Shown: positions 828-17,513, counted from the first letter of the stretch. The stretch is DNA of 17,513 nt from an uncultured delta proteobacterium (GCA_963840855.1 CAWJBB010000056.1:1-17513), one strand, 5' to 3'. The notes: generated from the letters alone by a model not told the origin. Numbers and translations: made by a program.

Positions 828-1005
828 GCAGGCTGCTCAAAGATCTCAGAGGCGAGGCGCGCGAATGAAATGGAGCGTTGGAGTAACGGAGTATTGGAGG
901 ATTGGGGCTCGAGCCCATCATTCCGCCACTCCAGTACTCCAGCACTCCAGTCACTATGAGGTGATCGCGCGCAACGAAGCATATGAGTCTTTTTCAGCAA
1001 CCTGC
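828..1005. mobile_element. MITE/REP-like non-coding element with imperfect terminal inverted repeats and an internal inverted 8-bp tandem array
   Basis: Left end GCAGGCTGCTCAAAGATCTCA (828-848) versus reverse complement of the right end GCAGGTTGCTGAAAAAGACTCA (984-1005). Inner inverted pair GCGCGCGA (857-864) / TCGCGCGC (965-972). TGGAGYRT-type units at 871-903 are mirrored by ACTCCAG units at about 926-950 around the perfect palindrome GGGCTCGAGCCC (905-916). No transposase is encoded. Confidence 0.65.
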
Positions 1006-3403
1006 TAGAGTCTTTTCGGCCCTGCTCCGTCCGTATCTTCGCCATCTCGCCAAACCTTCGCTGCCGCGCTACCGCGGCGAACTCGCTCTTCGCGGCCTAG
1101 AAAAACAAGTGAGTGTCTTCTGGCAGAGCGAAGGCATTCCCCATGTTTTCGCGGCGAATGAACATGATTTATTTTTCGCGCAAGGCTACCTGCATGCCCA
1201 GGAGAGGCTCTGGCAGATGGATTTCAACCGGCGCTTTCTCTCGGGACGCCTGGCCGAGATCCTCGGGCAGGTTGTCGTTCCGTGGCAAGAGCTCACCAGC
1301 CAATTTCGCGGCTGCGACAGCGTCGACGCCGATTATTTCATGCGCCTAATCGGCATCCGCCGCGCCGCGCTCGCGTCCGCCGGCATGCTTAGCGAGGAGG
1401 ATCGGCGGCGGCTTGAAGCCTATAGCGACGGCGTTAATAGATTCATCGAGCAATGCGGTAAACGTTTGCCGTTGGAGTTTCGCTTGCTGCATTATACACC
1501 CGATCCGTGGCGGCCCGAGGACACTCTCACAATCGGCAAAGGCTTTGCGTTTCTTCTGTCACTGCCGCTGTTCACGCGCCTGAACGCCATTGCGGTCGCG
1601 GCCAAGCTCGCCGGCGAGCCGGAAAAGCTGCACGACCTTTATCCGTTGGGTTACGACGGCAACTTTACGATTACTCACGCTATGTGGGATTCGACGCGGC
1701 ACCTCTGGCGTTTTACCGCGGGCATGCTCGCCGCAAACGATTGTTACCCCGCGGGGCACGGCAGCAACGCTTGGGTGATTGGCCCGAGCCGTTCCGATGC
1801 TGGCTGCGCGATTCTGTGCAACGATCCACACCTGCGCATGATGGTGCCATCGGTTTGGTACTTGATGCATTTGAAAGCCGACGCCGAGCCACCTCAAAAT
1901 GATAGCTACGAGGTCTGGGGCGCCTCTTTACCCGGCTGTCCGGGCATCCAGGTCGGGCACAACAGATGGATCACCTGGGGCATTACCGCGGCGCTGTGCG
2001 ACGATGTCGACGTTTATTGCGAGAAAATCCATCCGTTGGAGCCTGACCGCTACCAAATAGACGGCCGCTGGTTTTTGATGGACCGCCATGGCGAAAGCAT
2101 CCGCGTCAGGCGGAAAGGTTTGGTCGAGAAAACCGTACGCTGGACTCGCCACGGCCCGGTGATCAGCGATTTTGCTGGGCGACTATCAGGGCCGGAAGCC
2201 TTGAGCCTGCGCTGGACCGCCCATGAGGCGAGCCAGGATTTTAGCGGTCTCTATCGTCTTAATCGCGCGCGCAACTGGGATGAATTTCTCGAGGCGCTAT
2301 CCTATCAATCCGCCCCGAGCTTAAACTTCGTCTATGCCGACCGTCTGGGAAACATCGGCTACAGCCTCGCCGGCAAGGTTCCACTACGGAGCGGCGCGCC
2401 ATCGGTATTGCCGCGCGAGGGTTGGCGCGGCGAAAATGAATGGCGAGGTTTTGTGCCCTTTCGCGATTTGCCGCGCCTGTTCAATCCCTCTGAGGGCGCC
2501 ATCGCCAACGCCAATAATCAGATTGTGGATGACGCTTTCGAACATTATCTTTCGGGATTCTTCGAGCCCCCATATCGTGCACGGCGCATCCGCCAACTGC
2601 TCGCGGCAAGCGAGACCCACTCAATCAAGAACATGTCAGCCACGCAGGGTGATCTTGTTTCACTTCACGCCAGGGAACTAATTGCGACCCTCAGCGCCGA
2701 GCTAGCGGCAATACGCGCCGATGGAAGCGATCTCATGGCCGCCGCCGATTACCTGCTTCGTTGGGACGGTCACTGCGGTACGGATAGCGTCGCAGCGACA
2801 ATCTTCCATGTGTTTCATCACCAGCTTATCAAGAGCCTCCTGGTTCCAGCTTTGAGCGAAGAGTTCTTCGTTACCTACGTCGAAATTATCAATCAGAGCA
2901 TTATACCTATCGATAAGATTCTGGGTAACCCGGCCTCACCCTGGTTTACCGAGCGGCCACGCGGAGAACTGGTGCGCTCGGCCCTGGCCGAGGCCTGCGC
3001 CAAACTCACGGAATCTCTCGGTCCGGAGCAAGTTCACTGGCAGTGGGGCAAGCTCCATACCTTGACTTTGAATCACGCTTTCAGCCGGATCGGCTTCTTA
3101 CGTCCAGTTTTCTCGGTAGGGCCCTTCCCCTCTGGCGGCGACAACTTTACGATCAATCTTGGCTTTTACCGTCATTCAAACCCTTATCAACATACCGTCG
3201 GTCCCTCCATGAGAATGATCGTCGAGACCGGGCCAAGTATTCGGTCAAAGTTCATCCTCCCGTCAGGCCAATCCGGTCATCCCTTCTCTCAACACTTCCG
3301 TGACCAAACGGCGCGATGGCAAAGGCAGGACTACATCGAACTCAGTGGCAACGAAGAACAAATTCGCCATTGGCCACTGCTCTTACTAAAACCAGCGAGC
3401 TAG
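983..3403 (+). CDS. Penicillin acylase family protein (Ntn hydrolase; penicillin amidase/AHL acylase-like)
   Basis: 806 aa. Motifs GIPHVFA, AQGYLHAQERLWQMDFNRR, beta-chain start G-SNAWVIG (Ser261, codon 1763-1765), LCNDPHL, TRHGPVIS, NFVYADRLGNIGY, PSGQSGHPFSQHFRDQ. Start is uncertain because the ATG lies inside the repeat element. Confidence 0.93.
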   Translation: MSLFQQPARVFSALLRPYLRHLAKPSLPRYRGELALRGLEKQVSVFWQSEGIPHVFAANEHDLFFAQGYLHAQERLWQMDFNRRFLSGRLAEILGQVVVPWQELTSQFRGCDSVDADYFMRLIGIRRAALASAGMLSEEDRRRLEAYSDGVNRFIEQCGKRLPLEFRLLHYTPDPWRPEDTLTIGKGFAFLLSLPLFTRLNAIAVAAKLAGEPEKLHDLYPLGYDGNFTITHAMWDSTRHLWRFTAGMLAANDCYPAGHGSNAWVIGPSRSDAGCAILCNDPHLRMMVPSVWYLMHLKADAEPPQNDSYEVWGASLPGCPGIQVGHNRWITWGITAALCDDVDVYCEKIHPLEPDRYQIDGRWFLMDRHGESIRVRRKGLVEKTVRWTRHGPVISDFAGRLSGPEALSLRWTAHEASQDFSGLYRLNRARNWDEFLEALSYQSAPSLNFVYADRLGNIGYSLAGKVPLRSGAPSVLPREGWRGENEWRGFVPFRDLPRLFNPSEGAIANANNQIVDDAFEHYLSGFFEPPYRARRIRQLLAASETHSIKNMSATQGDLVSLHARELIATLSAELAAIRADGSDLMAAADYLLRWDGHCGTDSVAATIFHVFHHQLIKSLLVPALSEEFFVTYVEIINQSIIPIDKILGNPASPWFTERPRGELVRSALAEACAKLTESLGPEQVHWQWGKLHTLTLNHAFSRIGFLRPVFSVGPFPSGGDNFTINLGFYRHSNPYQHTVGPSMRMIVETGPSIRSKFILPSGQSGHPFSQHFRDQTARWQRQDYIELSGNEEQIRHWPLLLLKPAS

Positions 3404-3442: not shown

Positions 3443-3469
3443 GGAATAAATTCCGTTGGCGGGTTGTTT
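3443..3469 (+). promoter_or_regulatory. Putative ECF sigma-dependent (autoregulatory) promoter
   Basis: GGAATAAA (3443-3450), 15 nt, GTTT (3466-3469), directly upstream of the ECF sigma gene. Resembles the GGAATA...GTT promoters of PrtI-like/ECF26 sigma factors. Confidence 0.5.
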
Positions 3470-3536
3470 GCTCATGAAAAGGTTTCTCGCGAGATCGCGC
3501 GGCCCGCGTCATAATGAGCGAGGAGTCGAGACGACC

Positions 3537-4043
3537 GTGGCGGATGCTGACGGCATAATCAACTACATTCCGCAACTACGCCGCTACGCAAGAGCGTTGA
3601 CCGGTGATTTCACCTCGGCGGAAGACCTAGTGCAGGATACCATCGAGAGGGGTTGGAAGCGCATGGCACTTTGGCGTCCGGGCAGCGACCTGCGCGCTTG
3701 GCTCTTCACAATTATGCACAATCTTTATGTCAACCAACTCAAGGCCGGACGACGGCGCACGAGTCAGGGCATCGGGCATAACGAAGTTGATTTGCAAGTT
3801 TCGCCGACACACGACAATCAGCTCGAGTTAATCGACCTGAACAAATTCCTGCAGCGATTGCCCCATGAACAAAGGGAAGTCGTATTATTGATTGGGTTAG
3901 AACAGCTGTCCTATGACGAAGCAGCAAAGGTCCTCGGCGTGCCTATCGGCACCGTCATGTCCCGTTTGTCCCGCGGCCGCGAACAACTGCGCTCGATGAT
4001 GAACAGAGGCAGTTCTGCGGCGCAACTCAAGGTGATCAAATGA
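3537..4043 (+). CDS. ECF (sigma-70 family) RNA polymerase sigma factor, PrtI/ECF26-like
   Basis: Region 2: LRRYARALTGD..AEDLVQDT...LRAWLFTIMHN. Region 4: LSYDEAAKVLGVPIGTVMSRLSRGRE. Start taken as GTG 3537 behind GAGGAG (3520-3525); in-frame ATG 3474 is an alternative. Confidence 0.93.
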   Translation: MADADGIINYIPQLRRYARALTGDFTSAEDLVQDTIERGWKRMALWRPGSDLRAWLFTIMHNLYVNQLKAGRRRTSQGIGHNEVDLQVSPTHDNQLELIDLNKFLQRLPHEQREVVLLIGLEQLSYDEAAKVLGVPIGTVMSRLSRGREQLRSMMNRGSSAAQLKVIK

Positions 4044-6077: not shown

Positions 6078-7104
6078 ATGTCGTTTTGGAGGTTTACGTC
6101 GTGTCGAATACGTGCTTATTTTTTTGCGCTTTTAATCTTGCTCGCTTTAGCTTGCGGCCGCCCCCGCAACTGCCCAGCTTACCCGGCTTAACGTCGGCTA
6201 TAGCGCTGTCAGCGCCGACCAGTTGCCGGCCTGGGTTGCCAAGGACAGCGGCATCTTCACCAAGAACGGCCTGGAAGTGCAGTTGATTTTTTTCACCGGC
6301 GGCACGACGGCCATTCTCGCGCTGGTCTCGGGTGATGTGCCGATTACCCAGGTGTCCGGACCCGGCCTGGTAAGCAGTTCTCTGGCGGGTTCCGACTCGG
6401 TGTTCGTCGCTTCTGGCATTACTTCCCTCAACTACGTACTGATGGGCAGGCAAGGAGTCAAAACCACGGAACAACTTAAAGGCGGAACCCTGGCGATTAG
6501 CCGGTTCGGTTCGGCCACCGACTCCATCGCCCGTTTTGCGCTGCGGAACGTGGGGCTCACGCCGGGCAAAGATGTAACGCTCGTGCAGGTAGGCAGCGGA
6601 CCTGAGCGCCTCAACGCGTTGGTAACCGGCAAAGTAACCGCGGCGGTCATCAACCCTCCTTCCAGCTTCATGGCCGAAAAGCGCGGCCTCGCGGTGCTCG
6701 CGGATGTGGCGAAGATGGGGTTGGTGTTTCAGCACACCGGCGCGGCAACCACCAAAAAATATATCCGCGAGCACCAGGACACAGTTCGCCGCTACGTCAA
6801 GGCTCACGTTGAAGCAGTGCACAAAATGTGGACGGACAAGGAAGCCACCATCCGTGCCATCGGTAAACACATGCCGGGCGTAGAACGAGAGTTTCTGGAG
6901 AAGAGCTACGAAAACGTCATGAGCGAAACGCTATTTTCGAAAAAGCAGTATCCGAGCCTAGAGGGCTTGAAGACGGTTCTCAACGAGATTGCGGAGCGGG
7001 ACCCGCGGGCGAAGAGCGCCAAACCCGAACAATTCGCCGATTCAAGTTTTATCAGGGAACTTGACCAGAGCGGCTATATCGACAGCCTCTATAAGAAAAA
7101 ATGA
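6078..7104 (+). CDS. ABC transporter substrate-binding protein (NMT1/THI5, SsuA/TauA-like), 5' end frameshifted
   Basis: The main frame is open from 6151 (LAAAPATAQLTRLNVGYSAVSADQLPAWVAKDSGIFTKNGLEVQL...) to TGA 7102-7104. The signal peptide (RIRAYFFALLILLALA) is in another frame starting at ATG 6078. GTG 6101 behind GGAGG (6088-6092) is an alternative start that needs a further shift. Confidence 0.85.
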
Positions 7105-7559: not shown

Positions 7560-8537
7560 TTATTCTCGGTGCAGCAGCCGCGCCGCGTCTTTGGCGAAAT
7601 AGGTAAGAATCATGTCCGCGCCGGCGCGGCGGATCGAAAGTAGAACCTCCATCATGATGCGCTGTTCGTCGATCCAGCCGTTGGCCCCCGCCGCTTTGAT
7701 CATCGAGTACTCGCCGCTGACGTTATAGGCAGCCACCGGATAGCCGAACTTCTGCTTGACGCGGTAAACGACGTCGAGGTAGGCCATCGCCGGTTTTACC
7801 ATGACGATGTCCGCGCCCTCGCGGATGTCCATTTCGACTTCCCGCAACGCCTCATCTGCGTTTGCCGGGTCCATCTGGTACGAGCGGCGGTCGCCGAACT
7901 GCGGTGTCGACTCCGCCGCTTCGCGAAACGGCCCGTAAAATCCCGACGCGTATTTAGCCGCGTAAGCCATGATCGCGGTGTGCGCAAAACCGTTTTCGTC
8001 GAGCGACTTGCGAATCGCGCCGACCCGCCCATCCATCATATCCGATGGCCCGACAATATCGGCGCCGGCGCGGGCGTGAGACAGCGCTTCTTTCGCGAGC
8101 AACTCCAGGGTGCTGTCGTTGTCAACGTCGCCATTTTTGATCACCCCACAGTGGCCATGGTCGGTGTATTCGCACAAACAGACGTCGGTGATCACCAGCA
8201 TCTCGGGAGTTTTCTCTTTCATGAGCCGAATCGCCCGCTGCACCACACCGTCGTCAGCGTAGGCTTCGCTGCCCGCGCCATCTTTGTGTTCCGGAATACC
8301 GAAGAGAATTACCGCCGGTATTCCTAACGCACTGGCCTCCTCGCACTCGCGCGCCGCGCGGTCTACGGACAATTGCGCCACGCCGGGCATGGACGAAACC
8401 GGCTGAACCTTGTCCTTTCCCGGACCGATGAATAGCGGATAGATGAGATTCTTCGGGCTGAGGCTCGTTTCACGCACCATCGTCCTGATTCTTTCATTGC
8501 GCCTCAGTCGTCTTGGCCGGTAACGCGGAAAGTCCAT
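7560..8537 (-). CDS. hemB: Porphobilinogen synthase (delta-aminolevulinic acid dehydratase)
   Basis: RPRRLRR N-terminus, Zn-binding [60 protein letters not shown]. Confidence 0.98.
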
Positions 8538-8583
8538 TTGTTTCTCCGACCTCCCCTCCCATTTCCTCCCCCGCTTACGCAGG

Positions 8584-9402
8584 TTAGGGTGGGGGCAAAT
8601 TGCCTTGGAAATATTCGACCATAGCGTATACCAATCCGGTAATCGTAAACTCCCGCGCCGATACTGCAGCGATACCGCCTAGCTCTTCGATGGTTTTTTT
8701 TGTGATCGGTCCGATGCAGGCAATCGGCGTCTCGGCCAAGATATCCGCCAACCGTTGCCCGTCGAACAGCCGCGCGAAATTCGATACCGTGCTGGGACTA
8801 GTGAACGTAACCATGTCGATGGCCCGCCGCCGGAGCGTTTCTTTCAGCTTGCCTGTGTCGGCTTGCGGAATGACCGTGCGATAGGTTTCGACGACATCGA
8901 CCTCGGCGCCCCACTGCCTTAGCGTTTCGGGTAAAATTTCTCGCGCTTTGGCCGCGCGTGGGATCAGGACGCGCTTGCCGCGCATGGCCGCCGTATTCAG
9001 GACGTCAAGAATGCCCTCGGCCTGGTAAGTCGCGGGCACCAAGCAGTTCTTCACGCCGGCCGTTTCCAAGCGTTTCGCCGTTTCAGGCCCGATAGCGGCG
9101 ATTTGAACGTCCTCCAGTTCGGCCACGCTTCTTTTATGTTGAGCCATGCATTCAAAAAATCTCTCGACGCCGTTGGTGCTGGTGAACATCAGCCAGTCGT
9201 AGCAATTTAATTTTTTGATGGCTTCCTCGAGCGGCCGTGGATCCCTAGGAGGATGTATCTCAATCGTCGGGAATTCGATCACCTCGCCACCCTGCTCTTC
9301 AATTCTGCGCGCCAAGCTATCCGCTTGGGCCCGGGCCCGCGTAATCACGATGCGCTTCCCCAACAGAATCTGCGACGCCGGCGCCGGGTGGTTACCGTTC
9401 AT
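8584..9402 (-). CDS. hemD: Uroporphyrinogen-III synthase
   Basis: [53 protein letters not shown]. Located between hemC and hemB. Confidence 0.93.
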
Positions 9403-9416
9403 GTCCTACGACTCGC

Positions 9417-10337
9417 TTACTCCGGCTGCAACCGCGCCAGCAGCTTTTGCGCCCCCTGGCTGAGCAGCCGATCAGCCAACTCTTTTCCCAACTCTTCGGC
9501 TTTCATGGCCAGTCCAGCCAGTTCGGCCTTGAAAAGCTCATGGCCACCCGGGTCCGCGACAACGCCGATGATCTCGATCAATTCACCATAAACCTGAGCC
9601 CGTGCCCCTACGGGCAAATGGCAACCGCCACCGAGGCGTTTGAGCAGACCGCGCTCGCCCTGCACCTCGAAATGCGTCGGCATATCATCGAGGAACTCGT
9701 ATTCTTCGCGCAAGGAATCATCGTCGCGCGCCTCGACGGCCAGCGCGCCTTGAGCCGCGGCGCCCACGCAGATATCTCCAGGAAGAAATTCGCTAATGCG
9801 GTCTTCCCTGCCGATGCGCTTGAGTCCCGCCGCGGCCATGACCAGGGCATCGACCTCGCCGGCGTCGAGTTTTTTGAGACGGGTATCGATGTTGCCGCGA
9901 ATCGGCGCCACGGATAAATCGGCGCGGTAATGTAAAAGCTGGGCTTTGCGCCTCAAGCTGCCGGTGCCGATCCGCGCGCCGGCAGGCAATTCGCTCAACC
10001 GCGCGCCGCTTCGCGCCACCAACACATCGCGCGGATCTTCCCGCTCCGGCACGGCGATGATGGCCAGGCCCGGCGCCAATTCCGTCGGCAGGTCCTTCAT
10101 CGAATGCACGGCGAGATCGATTTCGCCGCTGAGCAAAGCCTCTTCGATCTCTTTGGTGAAGACGCCTTTGCCGCCAATGGCCTGGAGGGAAGCTTCGACG
10201 AAGCGGTCGCCACTGGTCTTGATGATTCGAAGGTTCACCTCCGCCGCCGGCCACTGCCGCTCGATCTCTCCCTTCAGCCAATTGGCCTGCGCCAACGCGA
10301 GGGCGCTCCCGCGGGTGCCGATGCGGACGGTTTTCAC
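9417..10337 (-). CDS. hemC: Hydroxymethylbilane synthase (porphobilinogen deaminase)
   Basis: IGTRGSALALAQA, GGKGVFTKEIE, AVHSMKDLP, GTGSLRRKAQ, IRGNIDTRL, and the cofactor-binding Cys in LGGGCHLPVG. Confidence 0.97.
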   Translation of the reverse strand: MKTVRIGTRGSALALAQANWLKGEIERQWPAAEVNLRIIKTSGDRFVEASLQAIGGKGVFTKEIEEALLSGEIDLAVHSMKDLPTELAPGLAIIAVPEREDPRDVLVARSGARLSELPAGARIGTGSLRRKAQLLHYRADLSVAPIRGNIDTRLKKLDAGEVDALVMAAAGLKRIGREDRISEFLPGDICVGAAAQGALAVEARDDDSLREEYEFLDDMPTHFEVQGERGLLKRLGGGCHLPVGARAQVYGELIEIIGVVADPGGHELFKAELAGLAMKAEELGKELADRLLSQGAQKLLARLQPE

Positions 10338-10383
10338 GACACTAACCTCGCGAGTTTATCCGCTCCTACGCGGCGGCATCTGA

Positions 10384-11670
10384 TCATTTGCCCTCCAGGT
10401 CAAAGAGCTTTTTCAAGGCGGCTATAGACCGCATGTCCTCTTCGTCTTCTTCCGGCGCGTCTTTCTTCAAATGTGAGATCGGGCCGTGCAGCATCTTGTT
10501 GATCATCGCTGCGGTCATGTCGTCGAGGGCTTGCCGTTGTTCCGAGGACAAATCTTTCAGATTGCCGCTCAAGGACCTCGCCAATTCGCGCCGGCGAATC
10601 TCGTCAAAGTGCGCGCGCAGCGCAGCGATGGTTGGCGCGCGCTCCAGCGATCCGATCCAACGCCCGAAACTCTCGACTTCCTGGACCACGATCTCTTCCG
10701 CTTTTTGCGCCTCGTTGGATCGCTCCTGGAGATTTTCTTCGGCGACTTCCTTCAAGTCATCGATGTTGTAGAGATAGGCGTTGTCAATATCGTTGATGGC
10801 AGAGTCGAAATTTCGCCGATCGCCGATGTCGATAAAAAACATCGGCTGCTGCTTGCGCTCGCGCAGCACTTTTTCCACCGCCGGTGCATCCACCAGGATT
10901 TCCGGCGAGCCGGTGCAGCCAATCACCAGGTCGGCCATCTTAAGATAGCGCGGAAAATCTTCGAATAGGATCGGACTTCCATGTATCCGCTCGGCCACCG
11001 CCACCGCCCGTTCAAAAGTACGATTGGTCACCATCAGACTCTTTACGCCGCTGCGCTGGAGCTGGCGCGCCATCAGATCGCCCATCTTGCCCGCGCCGAT
11101 CAGCATGACGGTCTTGTCATCGAAGCTATCGAAGATCCGCTTCGCGAGATCTACCGCCACCGAACTCACGGAAACGGCGCGGCTGGCGATGCCGGTCTCG
11201 GTGCGCACCCGCTTGGCCACGAAAAAGGACCGGTGGAATAGCCGATGCAAGACCGTTCCCACAGTACCGGCTTGCCGCGCAGCATCGTAAAACTCTTTAA
11301 GCTGGCCCAATATCTGCGGCTCGCCCACTACCATGGAGTCGAGGCTTGCCGCCACGCGAAATAAATGGCGCACCGCATCGGCGCCCCGATAAGTGTAAAG
11401 ATGATCCTCCAGACTGCTCCCCGCATGCTCAGCGCGCTGCTCGTCGAGAAATACTTTCATGTCATGACAGGCGGTCTGCGCATCGGCGACCGCCGCGACC
11501 ACTTCGACGCGGTTGCAAGTCGAGAGAATCACGCTTTCTTGGACGGCGGGGTAGCCGCGCAACCGCACCAACGCGTCGCGCACATAGCCGTTTTCGAAAG
11601 CGACGCTTTCGCGCACTTCGATAGGCGCGCTACGGTGATTCAAACCGACGATGACGATCTCTTTTTGCAC
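10384..11670 (-). CDS. hemA: Glutamyl-tRNA reductase
   Basis: VGLNHRSAPIEVRE, active-site LSTCNRVE, HLFRVAASLDSMVVGEPQILGQ, NADPH-binding IGAGKMG. Confidence 0.97.
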   Translation of the reverse strand: MQKEIVIVGLNHRSAPIEVRESVAFENGYVRDALVRLRGYPAVQESVILSTCNRVEVVAAVADAQTACHDMKVFLDEQRAEHAGSSLEDHLYTYRGADAVRHLFRVAASLDSMVVGEPQILGQLKEFYDAARQAGTVGTVLHRLFHRSFFVAKRVRTETGIASRAVSVSSVAVDLAKRIFDSFDDKTVMLIGAGKMGDLMARQLQRSGVKSLMVTNRTFERAVAVAERIHGSPILFEDFPRYLKMADLVIGCTGSPEILVDAPAVEKVLRERKQQPMFFIDIGDRRNFDSAINDIDNAYLYNIDDLKEVAEENLQERSNEAQKAEEIVVQEVESFGRWIGSLERAPTIAALRAHFDEIRRRELARSLSGNLKDLSSEQRQALDDMTAAMINKMLHGPISHLKKDAPEEDEEDMRSIAALKKLFDLEGK

Positions 11671-11673
11671 GGC

Positions 11674-12492
11674 TTATTCGAACCGGCCCCCATGCCGGCT
11701 GGGGAACAAGGTTTCGCCCCAGATAAAGTAACCAAGCACAACGCAGAATCCGAACATGGTAAGAATCGCGGCCTTCTTGCCACGCAAACCCGCGGTGATA
11801 CGCCCGTGCAACAAAGCACCATAAAAAAGCCAGGCGATTCCCGATGAAATCTGCCGCGGGTCCCAAGTCCAATAATCCCCCCAGTAAATGCGCGCCAAGA
11901 GGCTCCCGGTCAAGATGCCGAGGGTCATCAGCGGGAAACCCCATACGAGCAACTGATAGTTCAACCGGTCCAGCGCCTCCAACGACGGGATTCGCTTGAG
12001 GAGAGCGGTCATCTTTTTATGCTTGAGGCCGCGTTCTTGAAGCAGATAAATCAGGCTCACCGCGAAGGCTAAAGCGAAGACCGCGTTGCCGAGGAACGCG
12101 AGCGTGAAATGAACCGGCAGCCAATAAGTCCTCAGTCCCGGCGGCAGCTCACCGCTGGCAGCGCCGAACGCGAAGGCGGCAAGAGTCATGAGGGATGCCA
12201 CCGGCGTCACAATGGCGCCGAGAACCGTGAGCCGGTATTTGATTTGAATGACTAAATAAAGCGCGACAATGAGCCAGCTCTTGAAAGTCAGCGCCTCGTG
12301 AAACTGTGTTACAGCGGGATATCCTTCCTGGAGAAAATGGACGCTCAGCGCCGAGGTGTGGAGCAAGAATCCAGCGAGCAAGACTAGTGTCGGCAGCCGC
12401 GACGCGGTATTGCGAACGAGTACATAGAAGACAAAACTCGCGGTCGCTAGAAGATACAATACCGCGGTGGCCTTGAGCAGGATGATATCCAT
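11674..12492 (-). CDS. ccsA: Cytochrome c assembly family membrane protein (CcsA/HemX-like)
   Basis: Multi-TM protein with YWLPVHFTLAFLG, WGDYWTWDPRQ (WWD-like) and LLHGRITAGLRGKKAA. Sits upstream of hemA. ATG 12492 preferred over TTG 12516 because the latter region contains the promoter -10. Confidence 0.88.
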   Translation of the reverse strand: MDIILLKATAVLYLLATASFVFYVLVRNTASRLPTLVLLAGFLLHTSALSVHFLQEGYPAVTQFHEALTFKSWLIVALYLVIQIKYRLTVLGAIVTPVASLMTLAAFAFGAASGELPPGLRTYWLPVHFTLAFLGNAVFALAFAVSLIYLLQERGLKHKKMTALLKRIPSLEALDRLNYQLLVWGFPLMTLGILTGSLLARIYWGDYWTWDPRQISSGIAWLFYGALLHGRITAGLRGKKAAILTMFGFCVVLGYFIWGETLFPSRHGGRFE

Positions 12493-12504
12493 GATTTCAG
12501 GGCC

Positions 12505-12532
12505 ATTATAGGACAACGTCGGCGGCCTTCAA
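12505..12532 (-). promoter_or_regulatory. Sigma70-type promoter of the ccsA-hem operon
   Basis: Minus strand TTGAAG (12532-12527), 16 nt, perfect TATAAT (12510-12505), 12 nt before ATG 12492. No RBS. Confidence 0.6.
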
Positions 12533-12602
12533 GCCCGTAGAATGCGCTGATTTCTACGCCCCAAATCCAGTCCGCCTGCTGTGCATCTCCCCCCGCCGCA
12601 AC

Positions 12603-12653
12603 CTGGATGCCCGCTGGAGCTTGTCCTGAGTCCAGCCGAAGGGCGGGCATGAC
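12603..12653 (-). repeat. REP-like palindrome GTCATGCCCGC...GCGGGCATCCAG with a second repeat unit in its loop
   Basis: Arms ATGCCCGC (12607-12614) / GCGGGCAT (12643-12650). On the minus strand the loop carries CCCTTCGGCTGGACTCAGGACAAGCT. Confidence 0.6.
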
Positions 12654-12685
12654 GATTGAGGAAACGCCTTCCCCCTCGTCTCACC

Positions 12686-13432
12686 TTACCCCACAAAATG
12701 CGCGCCGCCGTCGACATTCAGCAGCTGCCCGGTCATGAAATCGCTCTCGGGTGACGCCAAGAACATCACGGTGCCAACCAGATCATTTTCCACCTGCGTG
12801 CGTTTGAGCGCGCGACCAGCGACGCGGCTGGCATTGAAGGCTGGATCCACTTGCCGTCCTTCGGTGACGACGAAGCCTGGGCTTACCGTGTTGACGCAAA
12901 TGTTATAATCACCGAGCTCTTTTGCCATCGCCCGAGTCATAGCGATGAGCGCGCCTTTCGAGGTCACGTAATGAATATAATTCTGGCCGCCGTTGAGCGC
13001 CGTGCCGGAAGAAATATTGATGATCTTCCCCTTTCCCTGCTGCTTCATATACGGAAATGCCGCCTTGGCGCAGAGCCACGACCCGCGCACGTTGACCGCC
13101 ATCGCCTTGTCGAATTCATCGACTGCCATTTCCCAAAACACGCTTTTCTTGACGCTCATGAAATACGCCGCATTGTTGACCAGCACATCGACGCCGCCGA
13201 ACTGCTTCGCCACTTCGTCGACCATCGCCCTGACGCTCTTTTCATCCGAAACATCGCACACCATGCTGAGGGCCGTGCCGCCCATGTCCCGGATCGCTTT
13301 CACCACGTGATCGGCGCTGGCAATGTCGGGCAAAGCGACTTTCGCGCCTTCTTTAGCGAAGCCAATGGCGTAAGCTTTGCCGATCTTGCCGCCGCCGCCG
13401 GTAATGATGACTGATTTGTCCGTGAAGCGCAT
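12686..13432 (-). CDS. SDR family NAD(P)-dependent oxidoreductase
   Basis: ITGGGGKIG, VDVLVNNAA, IINISS, catalytic YVTSK, VNTVSPG, FMTGQLLNVDGG. RBS AAGGAGG (13444-13438). Confidence 0.95.
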   Translation of the reverse strand: MRFTDKSVIITGGGGKIGKAYAIGFAKEGAKVALPDIASADHVVKAIRDMGGTALSMVCDVSDEKSVRAMVDEVAKQFGGVDVLVNNAAYFMSVKKSVFWEMAVDEFDKAMAVNVRGSWLCAKAAFPYMKQQGKGKIINISSGTALNGGQNYIHYVTSKGALIAMTRAMAKELGDYNICVNTVSPGFVVTEGRQVDPAFNASRVAGRALKRTQVENDLVGTVMFLASPESDFMTGQLLNVDGGAHFVG

Positions 13433-13466
13433 AAGGGCCTCCTTGAAATATAGGCATCTAGTTCAG

Positions 13467-13496
13467 CCCTTAGCACCGCCCACGCGGACCTGTCAA
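13467..13496 (-). promoter_or_regulatory. Possible sigma70 promoter for the SDR gene
   Basis: Minus strand TTGACA (13496-13491), 18 nt ending in TGC, TAAGGG (13472-13467). The -10 is weak but TG-extended. Confidence 0.4.
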
Positions 13497-13590
13497 TTCC
13501 AAACGAGAGTTCTGGTTGAATCCACGACAGATTTTAGTAATGATCTGTCCGGGGACTTGAAACAAACTGAACGACGCGGGACGTGATGCA

Positions 13591-13680
13591 ATGGCTAAAC
13601 TAAAACTGACCGTCGCCTGTGACAAGTATGATTATTTGCAGCCCCTGCGGGAGGGAAGAGTTCAAGCCAGAAATACGTGA
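13591..13680 (+). pseudogene. 29-codon N-terminal remnant of a 4,5-dihydroxyphthalate decarboxylase-like / solute-binding-fold protein
   Basis: Translates to MAKLKLTVACDKYDYLQPLREGRVQARNT*, matching the recalled family N-terminus (L.LT.AC..YD...PL..G.V). It is followed by AT-rich DNA with a further in-frame stop. Confidence 0.6.
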
Positions 13681-13749
13681 ATTCAAATTACCAGACTACA
13701 CTTAATCTTATAGTTTAAGTTATCGAAAGTAGCACAGGAGGTTTTGCCA

Positions 13750-14850
13750 ATGTCAGATTACCGCATCATCGACGCCGATGGGCATGTCATGGAACTGGAC
13801 AGCGAACTTCGCGAATTCATCGGCCCGCCCTATAAGGATTTGGAATGGCACCAGAGCTATTCCTTCTGGCCGGGTCTCACGATGGACGGCTATCTCCGTT
13901 CGCTGCGCCAGAAGGGCGGCTGGGCTGGCGGCGGCGACGGACCCAAGGCCAATCATTGGCTAGATTTTCTCGACAAAAACAAAATCGAATTGACCGTTCT
14001 TTACCCGACGCAGGGTCTCACCCACGGCGCCATTCAAGACAAAGACTGGGCGATCTGCATGGCGCGGGCCTATAACGACTGGCTTTATAACAAGTTCATG
14101 AAAGTCAGCCCGCGACTGGTGGGGGTCGCGCTCCTGCCGATTCAAGACATTGCCGAAGCCGTGAAAGAACTGCGCCGCGCTGTTAGTGAACTAGGTATGG
14201 TCGGAGCCGTGCTTCCGGCGGTGGCGCCGGCGGGAAGGCTTTACAGCGGGCCTGAGTTCTATCCGCTCTGGGAAGAAGCGCAGAAACTCGACGTGCCGGT
14301 TTCTACGCACGGCGGGCTCAGCATGCCGTCCCTCGGGCTGGACATGGTCAACAACTTTACCATCGGACATACTTTAGAACATCCCTTCGCGCAGATTCGC
14401 CAATTCGTCGCTATGATGTTCGAAGGCGTGTTCGAGCTTTTCCCCAATTTCAAATTCGGCTGCATCGAATGCGGCGTCGGTTGGGTGCCGTACATGATGG
14501 ACCGCATGGACGAGGAACAAGAGCGCAAAGGCCACTACTCGCCGCGCTGCAAGCTCAAGCCGAGCGAATACGTCAAAAAGGGCAATATCTACTTCGCCGT
14601 GGAGGTCGAAGAATCGGCGCTGCCCCTCGCCGCCAAGGTAGCGAACGACAACGCGCTCATCTGGGCATCGGACTATCCCCACGAACGCGACCAGCGCGAC
14701 TTCAGCCAGGACATCCCGAATTTGATCAATCGCAAAGACGTGAGCGACGAGCTGAAGCGCAAGATTTTCTGGGACAACCCGCTGAGATTCTATCCCAGGC
14801 TCAAGACGCGAGTCGAAAAGGAGCAGACGAGAAAAGCCGCCAACGCGTAA
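13750..14850 (+). CDS. Amidohydrolase family protein (Amidohydro_2, decarboxylase/hydratase-like)
   Basis: IIDADGHVME, VLYPT, ARAYNDWL, PLWEEAQKLDVPVSTH, IECGVGWVP, WASDYPH, KIFWDNPLRFY. RBS AGGAGG (13736-13741) favours ATG 13750. Confidence 0.93.
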   Translation: MSDYRIIDADGHVMELDSELREFIGPPYKDLEWHQSYSFWPGLTMDGYLRSLRQKGGWAGGGDGPKANHWLDFLDKNKIELTVLYPTQGLTHGAIQDKDWAICMARAYNDWLYNKFMKVSPRLVGVALLPIQDIAEAVKELRRAVSELGMVGAVLPAVAPAGRLYSGPEFYPLWEEAQKLDVPVSTHGGLSMPSLGLDMVNNFTIGHTLEHPFAQIRQFVAMMFEGVFELFPNFKFGCIECGVGWVPYMMDRMDEEQERKGHYSPRCKLKPSEYVKKGNIYFAVEVEESALPLAAKVANDNALIWASDYPHERDQRDFSQDIPNLINRKDVSDELKRKIFWDNPLRFYPRLKTRVEKEQTRKAANA

Positions 14851-14880
14851 ATACAATCAAGCGCTCTATCGCGCGTCCGA

Positions 14881-14924
14881 CCCTCTCCCGCTCTCATCCT
14901 AACCTTCTCCCAGAGGGAGAAGGA
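14881..14924. repeat. CCCTCTCCC...GGGAGAGGG-type palindromic (REP-like) unit; may also act as a terminator or stabiliser
   Basis: CTCTCATCCTAA, then a perfect 9-bp stem CCTTCTCCC (14903-14911) - AGA - GGGAGAAGG (14915-14923). Confidence 0.6.
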
Positions 14925-14987
14925 ATTAGACTAAGCCCGTTCTACTTGCTATGGACAATAGCGCTGCAATTGCGCTACACCTTATTC

Positions 14988-15740
14988 ATGACCGCTGACG
15001 AGTTCATCGCCGAACTGTGGAGCTACGCCGCCGAAGTCCCGATGGAACAACACCCGTGGTTCGACGGCATCATCAAGCACCGTTGGAGCAAAGAGCAGAT
15101 CATCCTGGGTGAAGTGCAGCATTATCTGCGGGTGCGCACGAATCCGATCTTCTTCGGTTACATGGCCATCAATGCCGTATCGGCCAAGGAATACGCGGTA
15201 ATGGACACCGTCCTGGAAAATTTCATGGAAGAGCTGGGCGGCAAACACACGCACGTCGATATCATGCTGCAATTCCTCCAAGAAGGCGGCATCTCGCGTG
15301 AAGAAGCTGATAACGCCGAGCCCGCGCCCGGGACGTTAGCGGCAATCGAAATGATCATCGGGTGCTGCCAGCGCCGCTCGGCATTGGAAGGTGTCGCCAT
15401 GCTCGCCTTCGTCGAAAGCCAACTTGGCGGCGCTGGTAAAATTTCCGCGAAGGTCTATCGAGAGCTAACCGGTCACTATGGGTTTTCACCACGCGCGGCG
15501 CAAACCTACGATTTGCACGCGGCCCAGGACGAAGGCCACGGCAGCCGTCAGATTGACGCAATTCGCCTGTTAGCGAAGGACGACGAGACCCAGAAAAAGA
15601 TTCGTGCCGCGGTCAAACTTGGGCTGACTGCATTCACCTTGGAATGGGACGGCCATGTCCAGGCAATGACGGGCAAGCGGGAGTTCTGGGGTGGAGTGGC
15701 GGATCTCAATATGCGGCAACCAACGGTTAGATTGCGATAA
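14988..15740 (+). CDS. Heme-oxygenase-like iron-containing redox enzyme (PqqC/CADD/TenA superfamily), 250 aa
   Basis: Start taken as ATG 14988 (MTADEFIAELW...HPWF). Di-iron-type ligand motifs E-x6-H (ELGGKHTH), FVES and H-x3-D-x2-H (HAAQDEGH). The upstream part of the 423-aa track ORF is a shadow overlapping the amidohydrolase. Confidence 0.85.
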   Translation: MTADEFIAELWSYAAEVPMEQHPWFDGIIKHRWSKEQIILGEVQHYLRVRTNPIFFGYMAINAVSAKEYAVMDTVLENFMEELGGKHTHVDIMLQFLQEGGISREEADNAEPAPGTLAAIEMIIGCCQRRSALEGVAMLAFVESQLGGAGKISAKVYRELTGHYGFSPRAAQTYDLHAAQDEGHGSRQIDAIRLLAKDDETQKKIRAAVKLGLTAFTLEWDGHVQAMTGKREFWGGVADLNMRQPTVRLR

Positions 15741-15744
15741 CGAA

Positions 15745-15896
15745 AGTCTAGGGTCTAGCGTTTTGAGTCTAGGGTTAGGGGAGAGGAGAAGCTCAAGACA
15801 CCAGACTCGGGACTCGAAACTGCGATCAGATGGTCTGGGGTCTAGAGTTGATTAGCCGAATCGGAACGCGAAACGCGAGACTCTAAACTCTGGACA
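15745..15896. repeat. Two adjacent inverted 7-bp tandem arrays between convergent genes
   Basis: AGTCTAG GGTCTAG CGTTTTG AGTCTAG (15745-15772) versus CAAGACA CCAGACT CGGGACT CGAAACT (15794-15821). GGTCTGG GGTCTAG (15832-15845) versus CGGAACG CGAAACG CGAGACT CTAAACT CTGGACA (15862-15896). Confidence 0.8.
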
Positions 15897-15902
15897 ACCG
15901 AT

Positions 15903-16124
15903 TCAGAGGGGCCAATCTTTCGGCAGATCTTTTCTGAGTTTCTGATAATCTGCGTCTTCGGCATAGGCCTTCCGGATGCGCTGGAGCTCTTTGAGCAGCT
16001 TTTTCTGATCCATCTTCAAAGAATTGGAGACCATACCCGTGGTCTCTTCGAAGCCGACGCCTCAATTGCTCCGTCAGCCGCGCATGCGTCTGAGGACGTA
16101 CAGGTCTTTTTCTTTATCCGCCAC
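15903..16124 (-). CDS. Putative small double-selenocysteine protein (73 aa, U-x-x-x-U motif), not in the ORF track
   Basis: GGAG, 6 nt, GTG (16124). Translates to MADKEKDLYVLRRMRG-U-RSN-U-GVGFEETTGMVSNSLKMDQKKLLKELQRIRKAYAEDADYQKLRKDLPKDWPL*, with TGA at 16076-16074 and 16064-16062. A SECIS-like hairpin lies downstream, and the ORF fills the end of a minus-strand operon. Confidence 0.75.
16014..16053 (-). promoter_or_regulatory. Putative bacterial SECIS hairpin of the UxxxU protein
   Basis: mRNA reads CUUCGAA-GAGACCA-[CGGGUA]-UGGUCUC-(CAAUUC bulge)-UUUGAAG: a 7-bp lower stem, a perfect 7-bp upper stem and a G-rich loop starting 22 nt after the second UGA (34 nt after the first). Confidence 0.7.
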
Positions 16125-16160
16125 GGTTTTCTCCACTGAGTTCGGGATCGCTCACGCCCG

Positions 16161-16580
16161 CTAGAATTTTACGCCGGTGAAGCCGACCGCTTGCGTCGTT
16201 ATCAACTCGGTTGTTGCGTTCGGTTCGCCCTTTTCATTGACGACTATTCGTAGCCGGACAAATATACGCCACGGCTCGCCTCGCCAGTTTGCCTGGAAAA
16301 TCACGAATGCGTTTTCGGTAACCAACCCCGACGGTTCATCGCAGCGCACCAAAGTCGAAAACTGCCTCGTTGCACCGGGCGCCAGATCGACCGGCGGATC
16401 GAATCCAAGTTCCTTCGACCTAAATTGCCCATGCGGCAAGCGAACCGCTATGATGCGAATCAGCTCCGCGCCGAGGTTTTGAACGCTCCATCCAACGCTC
16501 CAACGCGCCAGCGTGTCCTTTCGTTCGACCGAACTCTGGACAAGCGAAATTTGCGGCTCTGCATCTTTCACTGAAGCCAC
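16161..16580 (-). CDS. Hypothetical protein (139 aa, beta-rich)
   Basis: GTG start 8 nt after the upstream stop codon. Alternating beta-strand patterns (WSVGWSVQN, FVIFQANW, WRIFVRLRIVV). Family not recognised. Confidence 0.7.
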   Translation of the reverse strand: MASVKDAEPQISLVQSSVERKDTLARWSVGWSVQNLGAELIRIIAVRLPHGQFRSKELGFDPPVDLAPGATRQFSTLVRCDEPSGLVTENAFVIFQANWRGEPWRIFVRLRIVVNEKGEPNATTELITTQAVGFTGVKF

Positions 16581-16588
16581 CGCGCCGT

Positions 16589-17512
16589 TTACGGTTTGAG
16601 CCGTCCTTCGACCCGCAGCTCCTGCTGGGCAAGCTTGAGAACACGATCGTTGACCACTCTTTCGAGAGTGAACTTGCTATCGACAAGACCGGCACGGATG
16701 TCCTCGTCGAGCATTTGTTGAAGTCCAGAGGTGACTATCGATAAATCAGCGGTAAGGCCCGGCGCGAAAAGGTCCCAGGCGGCGCCGATGATTTCGGGAT
16801 CCCCTGTCAGGCCGGAATCGAAGCCGGCCTTGAGCGCCTCTTTCTTGTTGTACTTGGCGAGCTGGATTCCTTGAATATAAGCTTTTAGCATCCGTTTACT
16901 CGTCTCGGGATATTTTTCCAGGACTTCGTTGCGACTGACGATGATGTTTTGCGGTATGCCCAAAGACTCGCTCAAGTTGCTGATCAAAGAATAACCGCTC
17001 CTCAGTAGCCGCACCCCGTCTTCAGGCGAAAATGGCGCAGCCGCAATGATTCCCTTTTCGATGGCCGCCGCGCGCAACACGGTTCCGCCGATGGCCCGCA
17101 AGGTAACATCCTTGTCCGGGTTGATGTTATATTTTCTGAGAAACGCCTTCATGGCAAATTCCGAATATGTGCCGGCTCCGGTTATGCCGATCATTTTGCC
17201 CTTGAGATCCTCTACCGTCCGAGTCTGCTTGTTGCCAAGCAAGATGTAATTGGTCGTGCCGGAGGTGCATCCAATGATGGAAAGATCCAATCCGCGGGCG
17301 CGGCTGCGAAAAACCGCCTGCGCGCCGCCAATGGCGGCAAAGTCAACTTCACCGGAGACCAGCGCGGCTATGGCCGCCGGACCGCCGCGAATCAGGATCG
17401 GTTCGATACTCAACCCTTGTTGCTTGAAAAAACCTCGCGCCAGCGCCGCCCGAAAGGGAATCTCACTGTTCCAAGCGAGGCTTACGAACACCATTCGAAT
17501 GTTTTTCTTTTC
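16589..17512 (-). CDS. ABC transporter substrate-binding protein (NMT1/THI5, SsuA/TauA-like), 5'-truncated by the window edge
   Basis: Frame is open to the window end (EKKNIRMVFVSLAW...). Motifs GFFKQQGLSIE, AALVSGEVDFA, TVEDLKGKMIGIT, INPDKDVTL. Confidence 0.9.
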   Translation of the reverse strand, partial: EKKNIRMVFVSLAWNSEIPFRAALARGFFKQQGLSIEPILIRGGPAAIAALVSGEVDFAAIGGAQAVFRSRARGLDLSIIGCTSGTTNYILLGNKQTRTVEDLKGKMIGITGAGTYSEFAMKAFLRKYNINPDKDVTLRAIGGTVLRAAAIEKGIIAAAPFSPEDGVRLLRSGYSLISNLSESLGIPQNIIVSRNEVLEKYPETSKRMLKAYIQGIQLAKYNKKEALKAGFDSGLTGDPEIIGAAWDLFAPGLTADLSIVTSGLQQMLDEDIRAGLVDSKFTLERVVNDRVLKLAQQELRVEGRLKP

Positions 17513-17513
17513 C

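Follow-up and report, generated by a model that had tools for sequence, protein, structure and literature searches.

A candidate double-selenocysteine protein family with a U-x3-U motif, encoded beside a haem-oxygenase-like enzyme gene in bacteria

The window, i.e., the whole 17,513-nt stretch of DNA from an uncultured delta proteobacterium that was analyzed in this study, contains an apparent gap after a 139-aa gene. According to an earlier note on this DNA, the gap hides a gene with two in-frame TGA codons, and the locus therefore raises the question of whether these codons are stops or are read as selenocysteine (Sec). Direct reading of the minus strand bore out the claimed layout: a Shine-Dalgarno-like GGAG (16134-16131) is followed, after 6 nt, by a GTG start codon (16124-16122), 15 sense codons, TGA as codon 17 (UGA-1, 16076-16074), CGG AGC AAT, TGA as codon 21 (UGA-2, 16064-16062) and 52 further sense codons, the last of which are ...YQKLRKDLPKDWPL, before the stop TGA at 15905-15903. 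The putative gene (15903..16124, minus strand) has 73 codons, and its predicted product of 73 residues, MADKEKDLYVLRRMRGURSNUGVGFEETTG MVSNSLK..., contains no Cys and has a G on either side of the motif (G-U-R-S-N-U-G), as the earlier note had stated. The table-11 ORF listing gives just the 43-aa piece that starts at Met31 (15903..16034). The note was also right that TGA is a normal stop elsewhere in the window, where it ends the ORFs at 3456-4043, 6223-7104 and 10384-11670 (hemA). Given that TGA terminates these other well-supported genes, reassignment of the genetic code is not the explanation for the two internal TGAs.

In the homologs, a start codon, which is ATG in most of them, is found at the position of the window's GTG or two codons later, with GGAG/GAGG-like strings ahead of it, and the stretch upstream of the start is unconserved and contains stops. 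In several closely related genomes of genus g25 (L054-L065), an in-frame TGA followed by R/H-S-N-V is found approximately 12 codons upstream of the start; this string echoes the U-R-S-N of the window protein and probably marks where the preceding gene ends.

The two TGAs are conserved among relatives. In a six-frame search of 61 related genomes, 49 proved to contain a full-length match that is interrupted by exactly two in-frame TGAs; these carriers include the unpublished G009 and G015, neither of which alone bears any claim. The 51 copies extracted from them align without gaps over 71 codons, and both TGAs are found in all 51, while the terminal stop varies (TGA in 19, TAG in 23 and TAA in 9). 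When one genome of each prokaryotic species was scanned with the pattern FEET[TA]GMV, which limits the scope to forms with that motif, 214 relatives were obtained, mostly from soil lineages, including Binatia, Syntrophobacteraceae, Chloroflexota, Verrucomicrobiota, Acidobacteriota and others. The family is thus widespread, with 214 species-representative genomes. Among the best 80 of these 214 relatives, 78 have TGA at both positions, one locus of Chloroflexota (L129) has TGT/TGT and one of Nocardioidaceae (L140) has TGC/TGA, so that UGA-1 is TGA in 51/51 and 78/80 loci (exceptions TGT and TGC) and UGA-2 in 51/51 and 79/80 loci (exception TGT). Together, both TGAs are found in 129 of 131 homologous loci (the 51 copies plus the best 80 of the 214) from several bacterial phyla. 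Across the Sec- and Cys-form loci, positions 17 and 21 carry TGA or TGY only and never TAA, TAG or a codon for another residue. The double-TGA pattern is far beyond chance. The relatives thus align across both TGAs in the way that the earlier note had proposed for a genuine selenoprotein, with the N-terminal segment conserved, and neither a TAA or TAG nor a non-Cys residue, either of which the note had regarded as fatal to its reading, occurs at these positions in any homologous locus.

The gene is covered by contigs from RNA libraries of three runs, in which both TGAs are intact, and one of these contigs spans 15910-16122 with 5 differences; because such libraries can contain DNA, these contigs are a weak hint of expression and not proof of transcription. 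The genome bin from which the window comes contains a second copy of the gene, with 93% protein identity, on the 333-kb contig C41 of the same bin. We rejected this copy as a paralogue or as independent evidence, given that window positions 9665-17513 are 98.1% identical to C41:65171-73000 over at least 7,850 bp; owing to this near identity of the contigs, the second copy probably reflects strain mixture or assembly redundancy.

Further analyses revealed how selection acts along the frame. In the 109 distinct Sec-form rows among the 131 loci, the Nei-Gojobori-type proportions pS and pN are 0.640 and 0.342 for codons 3-16 (before UGA-1), 0.606 and 0.281 for codons 18-20 (between the UGAs), 0.174 and 0.048 for codons 22-33 (after UGA-2) and 0.676 and 0.322 for codons 34-73. 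The pN/pS ratio is 0.53 ahead of UGA-1 and 0.48 beyond codon 34, and the segment before UGA-1 is thus as coding-constrained as the part after Met31. In all the variable segments of the ungapped alignment of the 131 loci, pN/pS ranges from 0.46 to 0.53, i.e., the UGAs are conserved (129/131 loci) while the flanks on both sides evolve as coding sequence. These comparisons of sequences indicate that the locus is a real protein-coding gene over its whole frame, including the 16 codons before UGA-1. In codons 22-33, three quarters of the synonymous variation are gone in the Sec forms, while pS over the same codons is 0.753 in 67 distinct Cys-form rows. Given its absence from the Cys forms, this freeze goes with the UGAs rather than with the protein.

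The Cys forms came from a profile search over 1.84 billion representative proteins, which returned 126 matches. Of these, 87 are exactly 43 aa long and correspond to the miscalled Met31 fragment, in line with the earlier note's claim about gene callers, and 22 are full-length proteins with the motif C-x3-C-x3-F-x2-T-x2-M. All 80 metagenome loci that were fetched with the Cys-form pattern, which are of archaeal type, have TGY, and hence Cys, at both positions. Where the source of related proteins is named, it is archaeal and mostly Thermoplasmata. Thus, Cys is aligned to the UGAs in L129, in L140, in 80/80 Cys-form loci and in the 22 CxxxC proteins. The residues that are invariant across the Sec and Cys forms are C/U17, C/U21, F25, T28, M31, R64, P68 and P72. 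A search with one Cys form (P0066) found 137 relatives without a Pfam domain, most of them without a source name; the rows named by NCBI are "hypothetical protein" or carry incidental labels from Thermoplasmata archaeon MAGs, and other Cys-form clusters have members labelled Sulfolobaceae and Heimdallarchaeota. In 30 of the 80 Cys-form loci (L152-L231), a Cys-rich 105-aa gene of the Ta0938 family (PF11494) follows on the same strand at a distance of approximately 0.9 kb.

The earlier note had placed a hairpin just 3' of the UGA. A structure is indeed predicted there, but it consists of two hairpins, and they were recognized from frozen synonymous sites rather than from covariation. The RNAalifold consensus of 99 distinct 75-nt rows has two adjacent hairpins, with 99.4% of the cells paired. 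Hairpin 1 (U-GAGGC / 4-nt loop / GCUUC-G; 16049..16064, minus strand) begins 10 nt past UGA-1 and contains UGA-2 in its 5' arm. It is paired in 99.0% of the cells; 22 of the 99 rows show G-U to A-U changes and none shows a double change. Its minimum free energy (MFE) is -6.8 to -7.5 kcal/mol, and it is lost in the Cys/Cys locus L129. Hairpin 2 (GAGACCA / CGGGUA / UGGUCUC; 16027..16046, minus strand), the best candidate for a SECIS element, has a 7-bp stem, a 6-nt loop and an MFE of -9.2 kcal/mol; it is nearly invariant (99.8% paired), with third-position identity of 100% at most codons. Its loop starts 22 nt past UGA-2 and 34 nt past UGA-1. The bSECIS model given in the Fig 2 legend of PMC13188914 has a loop of 3-9 nt, a stem of 4-16 bp, a G in the first two loop positions, an MFE of -7.5 kcal/mol or lower and a distance of 16-37 nt from the UGA. 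By the values in that legend, hairpin 2 agrees with the model on every point for both UGAs, with G at loop position 2 followed by another G, while hairpin 1 departs from it, with approximately 15 nt to the loop, the first two positions of which usually lack a G.

It should be noted that compensatory base changes were found at 0 of 12 pairs in the alignment of 99 rows; with no double changes, the hairpins are therefore deduced from the invariance of the sequence and not from covariation. As a single sequence, the window's copy is no more stably folded than shuffled versions of it (z = -0.99), and no Rfam family, SECIS or otherwise, matches the gene at E up to 10. In the same genome, the Sec codon of fdhA has a hairpin with a GGUCU loop 18 nt away, and that of selD has a hairpin with a GUU loop 33 nt downstream. 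A 5-bp mini-hairpin also starts at the G of the selD UGA, a layout that resembles the two hairpins of the 73-residue gene. Hairpin 2 was also considered as a terminator, which we rejected on the ground that the T-run after it is unconserved in the homologs.

It is plausible, judging from these conserved features, that hairpin 2 is a SECIS decoding element. SelB with Sec-tRNA would bind hairpin 2 through its 7-bp stem and the loop CGGGUA, and, as the loop distances of 22 and 34 nt both lie inside the 16-37 nt of the model, one SECIS could serve both codons in turn. Hairpin 1, the stem of which includes UGA-2, may act as a brake on the ribosome or as an obstacle to release factor 2. Compared with the bSECIS consensus as set out in that legend, the locus would differ in that one element seems to serve two UGAs 12 nt apart and in that an extra conserved mini-hairpin embeds UGA-2. 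Two UGAs in reach of one SECIS, together with a hairpin 1 that is specific to the Sec form, would make a compact natural system for the study of closely spaced Sec decoding.

Decoding of this kind presupposes Sec machinery in the genome, for which the earlier note had named selA, selB, selC and selD; selA, selB (as a split gene) and selD were identified, while selC was not found in the assembly, though it is present in relatives. The genes selA (616 bits), selB and selD are clustered on contig 1. The product of selD (C1:37592-38518; L001; 383 bits) is itself a selenoprotein with an in-frame UGA (...VKAAGUAAKLG). selB (C1:38613-40500; L005 and L006) is split into two matches, with 208 and 193 bits, which are in different frames and overlap near C1:39976-39989; the split may be a frameshift or a broken gene, or an assembly indel. 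Aragorn found 39 tRNAs in the assembly, none of them tRNA-Sec, and the best hit for tRNA-Sec in an Rfam search of the assembly scored 43 bits against a cut-off of 47. The assembly is a metagenome bin that is 94% complete, with 8% contamination and a near-duplicate contig. In the relatives that were checked, all of which carry the gene, tRNA-Sec was found in 5/5, with 73-77 bits.

Taken at face value, the callers' 43-aa ORF suggests that the TGAs are true stops, in which case the locus would hold a 16-codon leader and a separate protein that starts at Met31, and the hairpins would be an attenuator-like RNA. Hairpin 2 followed by CAATTCTTTG forms a terminator-like pattern in the window, and the SECIS candidate comes without proof by covariation, both of which would suit such an arrangement. 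Codons 18-30, however, hold no start codon and yet conserve F25, E26, E27, T28 and G30, and F25, T28 and M31 are invariant also in the Cys-form ORFs, which are uninterrupted over 71 aa. True stops would moreover drift among TGA, TAG and TAA as the terminal stop of the 51 copies does, which the internal ones never do, and Cys codons are the only replacements seen. We therefore consider true stops very improbable. A pseudogene, or TGAs that stem from sequencing errors, would be in keeping with a contaminated metagenome bin that contains a near-duplicate contig, but the same two TGAs are found in 129/131 loci from independent assemblies, among them several closed genomes, and in the RNA-library contigs of all three runs, and these comparative data refute an artefact. 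The TGAs may also be read through without Sec, with Trp, Cys or Arg inserted by a near-cognate or suppressor tRNA, or with Cys delivered by SelB on tRNA-Sec at low selenium. UGA followed by C is a leaky context, and C follows UGA-1 in the window; the lack of a detectable tRNA-Sec in the assembly and the two frames of selB point in the same direction. The pairing of Sec with Cys at both sites is, in contrast, the classical signature of Sec; the SECIS-like frozen element follows the UGAs in Sec forms only; and with selA, selB and selD present, selD and fdhA using Sec and tRNA-Sec found in every gene-carrying relative checked, read-through of this kind is improbable. Insertion of Sec at both UGA codons is thus the reading that we favor, and on the evidence of the sequences we put its probability at roughly 0.85.

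The 73-residue protein is predicted to be a cytoplasmic four-helix bundle. The AlphaFold2 model (67 sequences; pLDDT 85.8) has four helices (residues 2-21, 25-35, 40-54 and 58-66) and no strands; the final two turns of helix 1 carry Sec17 and Sec21 side by side. With an all-alpha topology and with U17 and U21 at the C-terminal end of helix 1, the predicted fold is not thioredoxin-like, in agreement with the earlier note. Foldseek against the PDB returned nothing for the small protein at E below 1. In a wide structure search (VIA), Z did not exceed 6.4; the best match was MntR (Z 6.4), followed by sigma region 4 and proteins of the LuxR and LysR types (Z 5-6), and these values do not reach the level that the tool itself gives for chance arrangements of helices. 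Like the thioredoxin-fold selenoproteins with CxxU or UxxC motifs (Trx, Grx, Prx-like and SelW-like), the new protein would have a chalcogen pair able to cycle between the reduced and bridged states, and it has Cys homologs. It differs from them in that both members of the pair would be Sec, with a spacing of i and i+4, and in the location of the pair at the C-terminal end of a helix. A search of the genome that contains the window for PF10262 (Rdx) gave no match. Most prokaryotic selenoproteins have a single Sec in a UxxC or CxxU motif, according to section 7 of PMC13188914. A helix with Sec at both i and i+4, outside a thioredoxin fold, would thus be unusual among prokaryotic selenoproteins.

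The earlier note did not recognize the family, and neither did the curated models. At E up to 1, the Sec form had matches to 0 NCBIfam families, and its single Pfam match was below threshold; ten Cys forms match no NCBIfam or Pfam family; and the ESM Atlas gave unnamed clusters only (score 0.76). A U-x3-U entry is absent from section 7 of the 119-family 2026 inventory of prokaryotic selenoproteins, and the two-Sec entries in the sections consulted are all tied to HMMs that do not match the new protein (PMC13188914). Small two-Sec bacterial families in Table 1 of that inventory are the UxxU "metal-binding protein" NF041115, the FmdB-family UxxU TIGR02605, MbdU (NF045648) and TsoB (UxxxxU, NF045694). 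As far as that table goes, the new protein resembles these families in having two Sec close together within a short protein or motif, for which a redox or metal role is inferred, and in coming from a bacterium that uses Sec, where one SECIS downstream presumably serves both UGAs. In contrast to them, it has U-x3-U on an alpha helix, matches none of their HMMs, is predicted to be a four-helix bundle rather than a zinc ribbon, rhodanese or thioredoxin fold and has another gene neighbourhood. In the portions of the sources consulted, BSepDB is built from known families and the new families of deep-Sep are other ones. A literature search that included Binatia selenoproteins found no description of the family, which the supplementary tables of deep-Sep and BSepDB might list. 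As far as the sources examined show, the double-Sec U-x3-U family is undescribed. The databases hold its Sec form only as a 43-aa "hypothetical protein" stub, and, with U allowed at both sites, an HMM would mend hundreds of annotations and add a family to the selenoproteome.

The genes around the Sec gene are conserved with it. The upstream, co-directional 139-aa gene (16161..16580, minus strand) ends 36 nt before the GTG and is found on the same strand in 79/80 Sec-form loci and in all 76 with room for it. Its product belongs to no known family, with no match in Pfam or NCBIfam; the AlphaFold2 model (pLDDT 85) is an 8-strand beta sandwich, for which the structural matches are only generic Ig-like or FnIII-like beta sandwiches (TM 0.3-0.4). 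A homolog of the 139-aa protein, at G029:C207:5317-5658, has an in-frame TGA, which may point to either a damaged copy or a further Sec site. Further upstream is a gene for an NMT1/THI5-like substrate-binding protein (16589..17494, minus strand; Pfam and NCBIfam), which is found in 30/80 loci. Convergent to the Sec gene is a gene for a 250-aa haem-oxygenase-like (HO-like) "iron-containing redox enzyme" (14988..15740, plus strand), which matches PF14518 and PF03070, the models of the superfamily of HO-like di-iron oxidases/oxygenases and TenA/PqqC, above the Pfam cut-offs and keeps motifs of the E-x-x-H type. According to 45 aligned homologs its true start is at 14988 (MTADEFIAELW), so that the 423-aa ORF at 14469-15740 is over-extended. 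The HO-like gene is on the opposite strand in 71/80 Sec-form loci (66/72 with room). The enzyme is neither CADD, for which the score against TIGR04305 is 57.3 bits with a cut-off of 200, nor BesC; only the superfamily models PF14518 and PF03070 pass, and the JGI name "PQQ biosynthesis protein C" is an automatic label. An Amidohydrolase_2 gene (PF04909; 13744..14850, plus strand; Pfam) is directly upstream of the HO-like gene and is found in 26/80 loci.

Among the 61 relatives, the HO-like gene and the Sec gene co-occur in 49 and are both missing from the other 12, and the 139-aa gene is found in those 49 plus one more; because the relatives are kin and the three genes form one cassette, these counts are not independent and overstate the support. 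The Cys-form loci give the link between neighbours more weight than such counts do. In 49 of the 61 Cys-form loci with room, the gene downstream on the same strand encodes a protein with a zinc finger and a TenA/PqqC/haem-oxygenase-like part, mostly at a spacing of 17-24 nt. Comparison of this neighbour with the bacterial HO-like enzyme by hhalign gave a probability of 91.8% (E 7e-7; 163 columns; 22% identity), while tblastn with the bacterial enzyme found no match in the Cys-form loci at E 1e-5, so that the kinship is visible at the profile level only. The orientation of the HO-like gene differs between the bacterial and archaeal loci, and the two neighbours share just those 22% of residues. 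A predicted complex of the HO-like enzyme with P0002, a Cys-form stand-in for the Sec protein, scored 0.00 against a mark of 0.32, which is evidence neither way. We know of no dedicated small Cys/Sec partner for the HO-like enzyme class, the physiological partners of which are, to our knowledge, largely unknown. The pairing with an HO-like enzyme, by the Sec form in bacteria and by the Cys form in archaeal-type loci, points to an unrecognised accessory protein.

We infer the function of the 73-residue protein only from its predicted fold, motif and neighbours. A possible, though tentative, reading is that the selenol pair is a redox site (diselenide/diselenol) or a metal-holding site that works with the 139-aa protein and the HO-like enzyme. 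The pair might, for example, reduce or load the metal center of the HO-like di-iron-type enzyme, with the 139-aa beta-sandwich protein as a co-transcribed partner. The protein might instead sense redox state or metals as a small helix-turn-helix (HTH)-like regulator of the genes next to it, given that its best structural neighbours, weak as they are, are all DNA-binding HTH domains; their Z values are, however, under the level for chance helices, and Foldseek gave no match at E below 1. The position of the archaeal-type gene 17-24 nt ahead of the enzyme gene is, moreover, more like that of a subunit in an operon, and an invariant C-terminal LPxDWP tail and an equally invariant face of F25, T28 and M31 would be unusual for a reader of DNA. 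A sensor is accordingly unlikely. The broadest form of the accessory-protein reading, in which the helix-borne Sec pair belongs to a dedicated redox or metal-delivery partner of the HO-like enzyme, in a partnership so old that archaea share it in Cys form, and with one SECIS plus a helper hairpin, is in our opinion rather doubtful as a whole. If true, it would add a new kind of accessory protein for the HO-like class and provide a natural test of SelB reloading on one SECIS within four codons.

Several other features of the window are worth recording. A haem-precursor cluster (7560-11670, minus strand) contains hemB, hemD, hemC and hemA, a gene for a cytochrome c assembly protein is located at 11674-12516 and a penicillin-amidase family gene at 983-3403 (plus strand); no link of any of them to the Sec gene was seen. 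In the spacer between the convergent HO-like and Sec genes (15741-15902), several CTAGAC(C/T)-like words can be recognized by eye.
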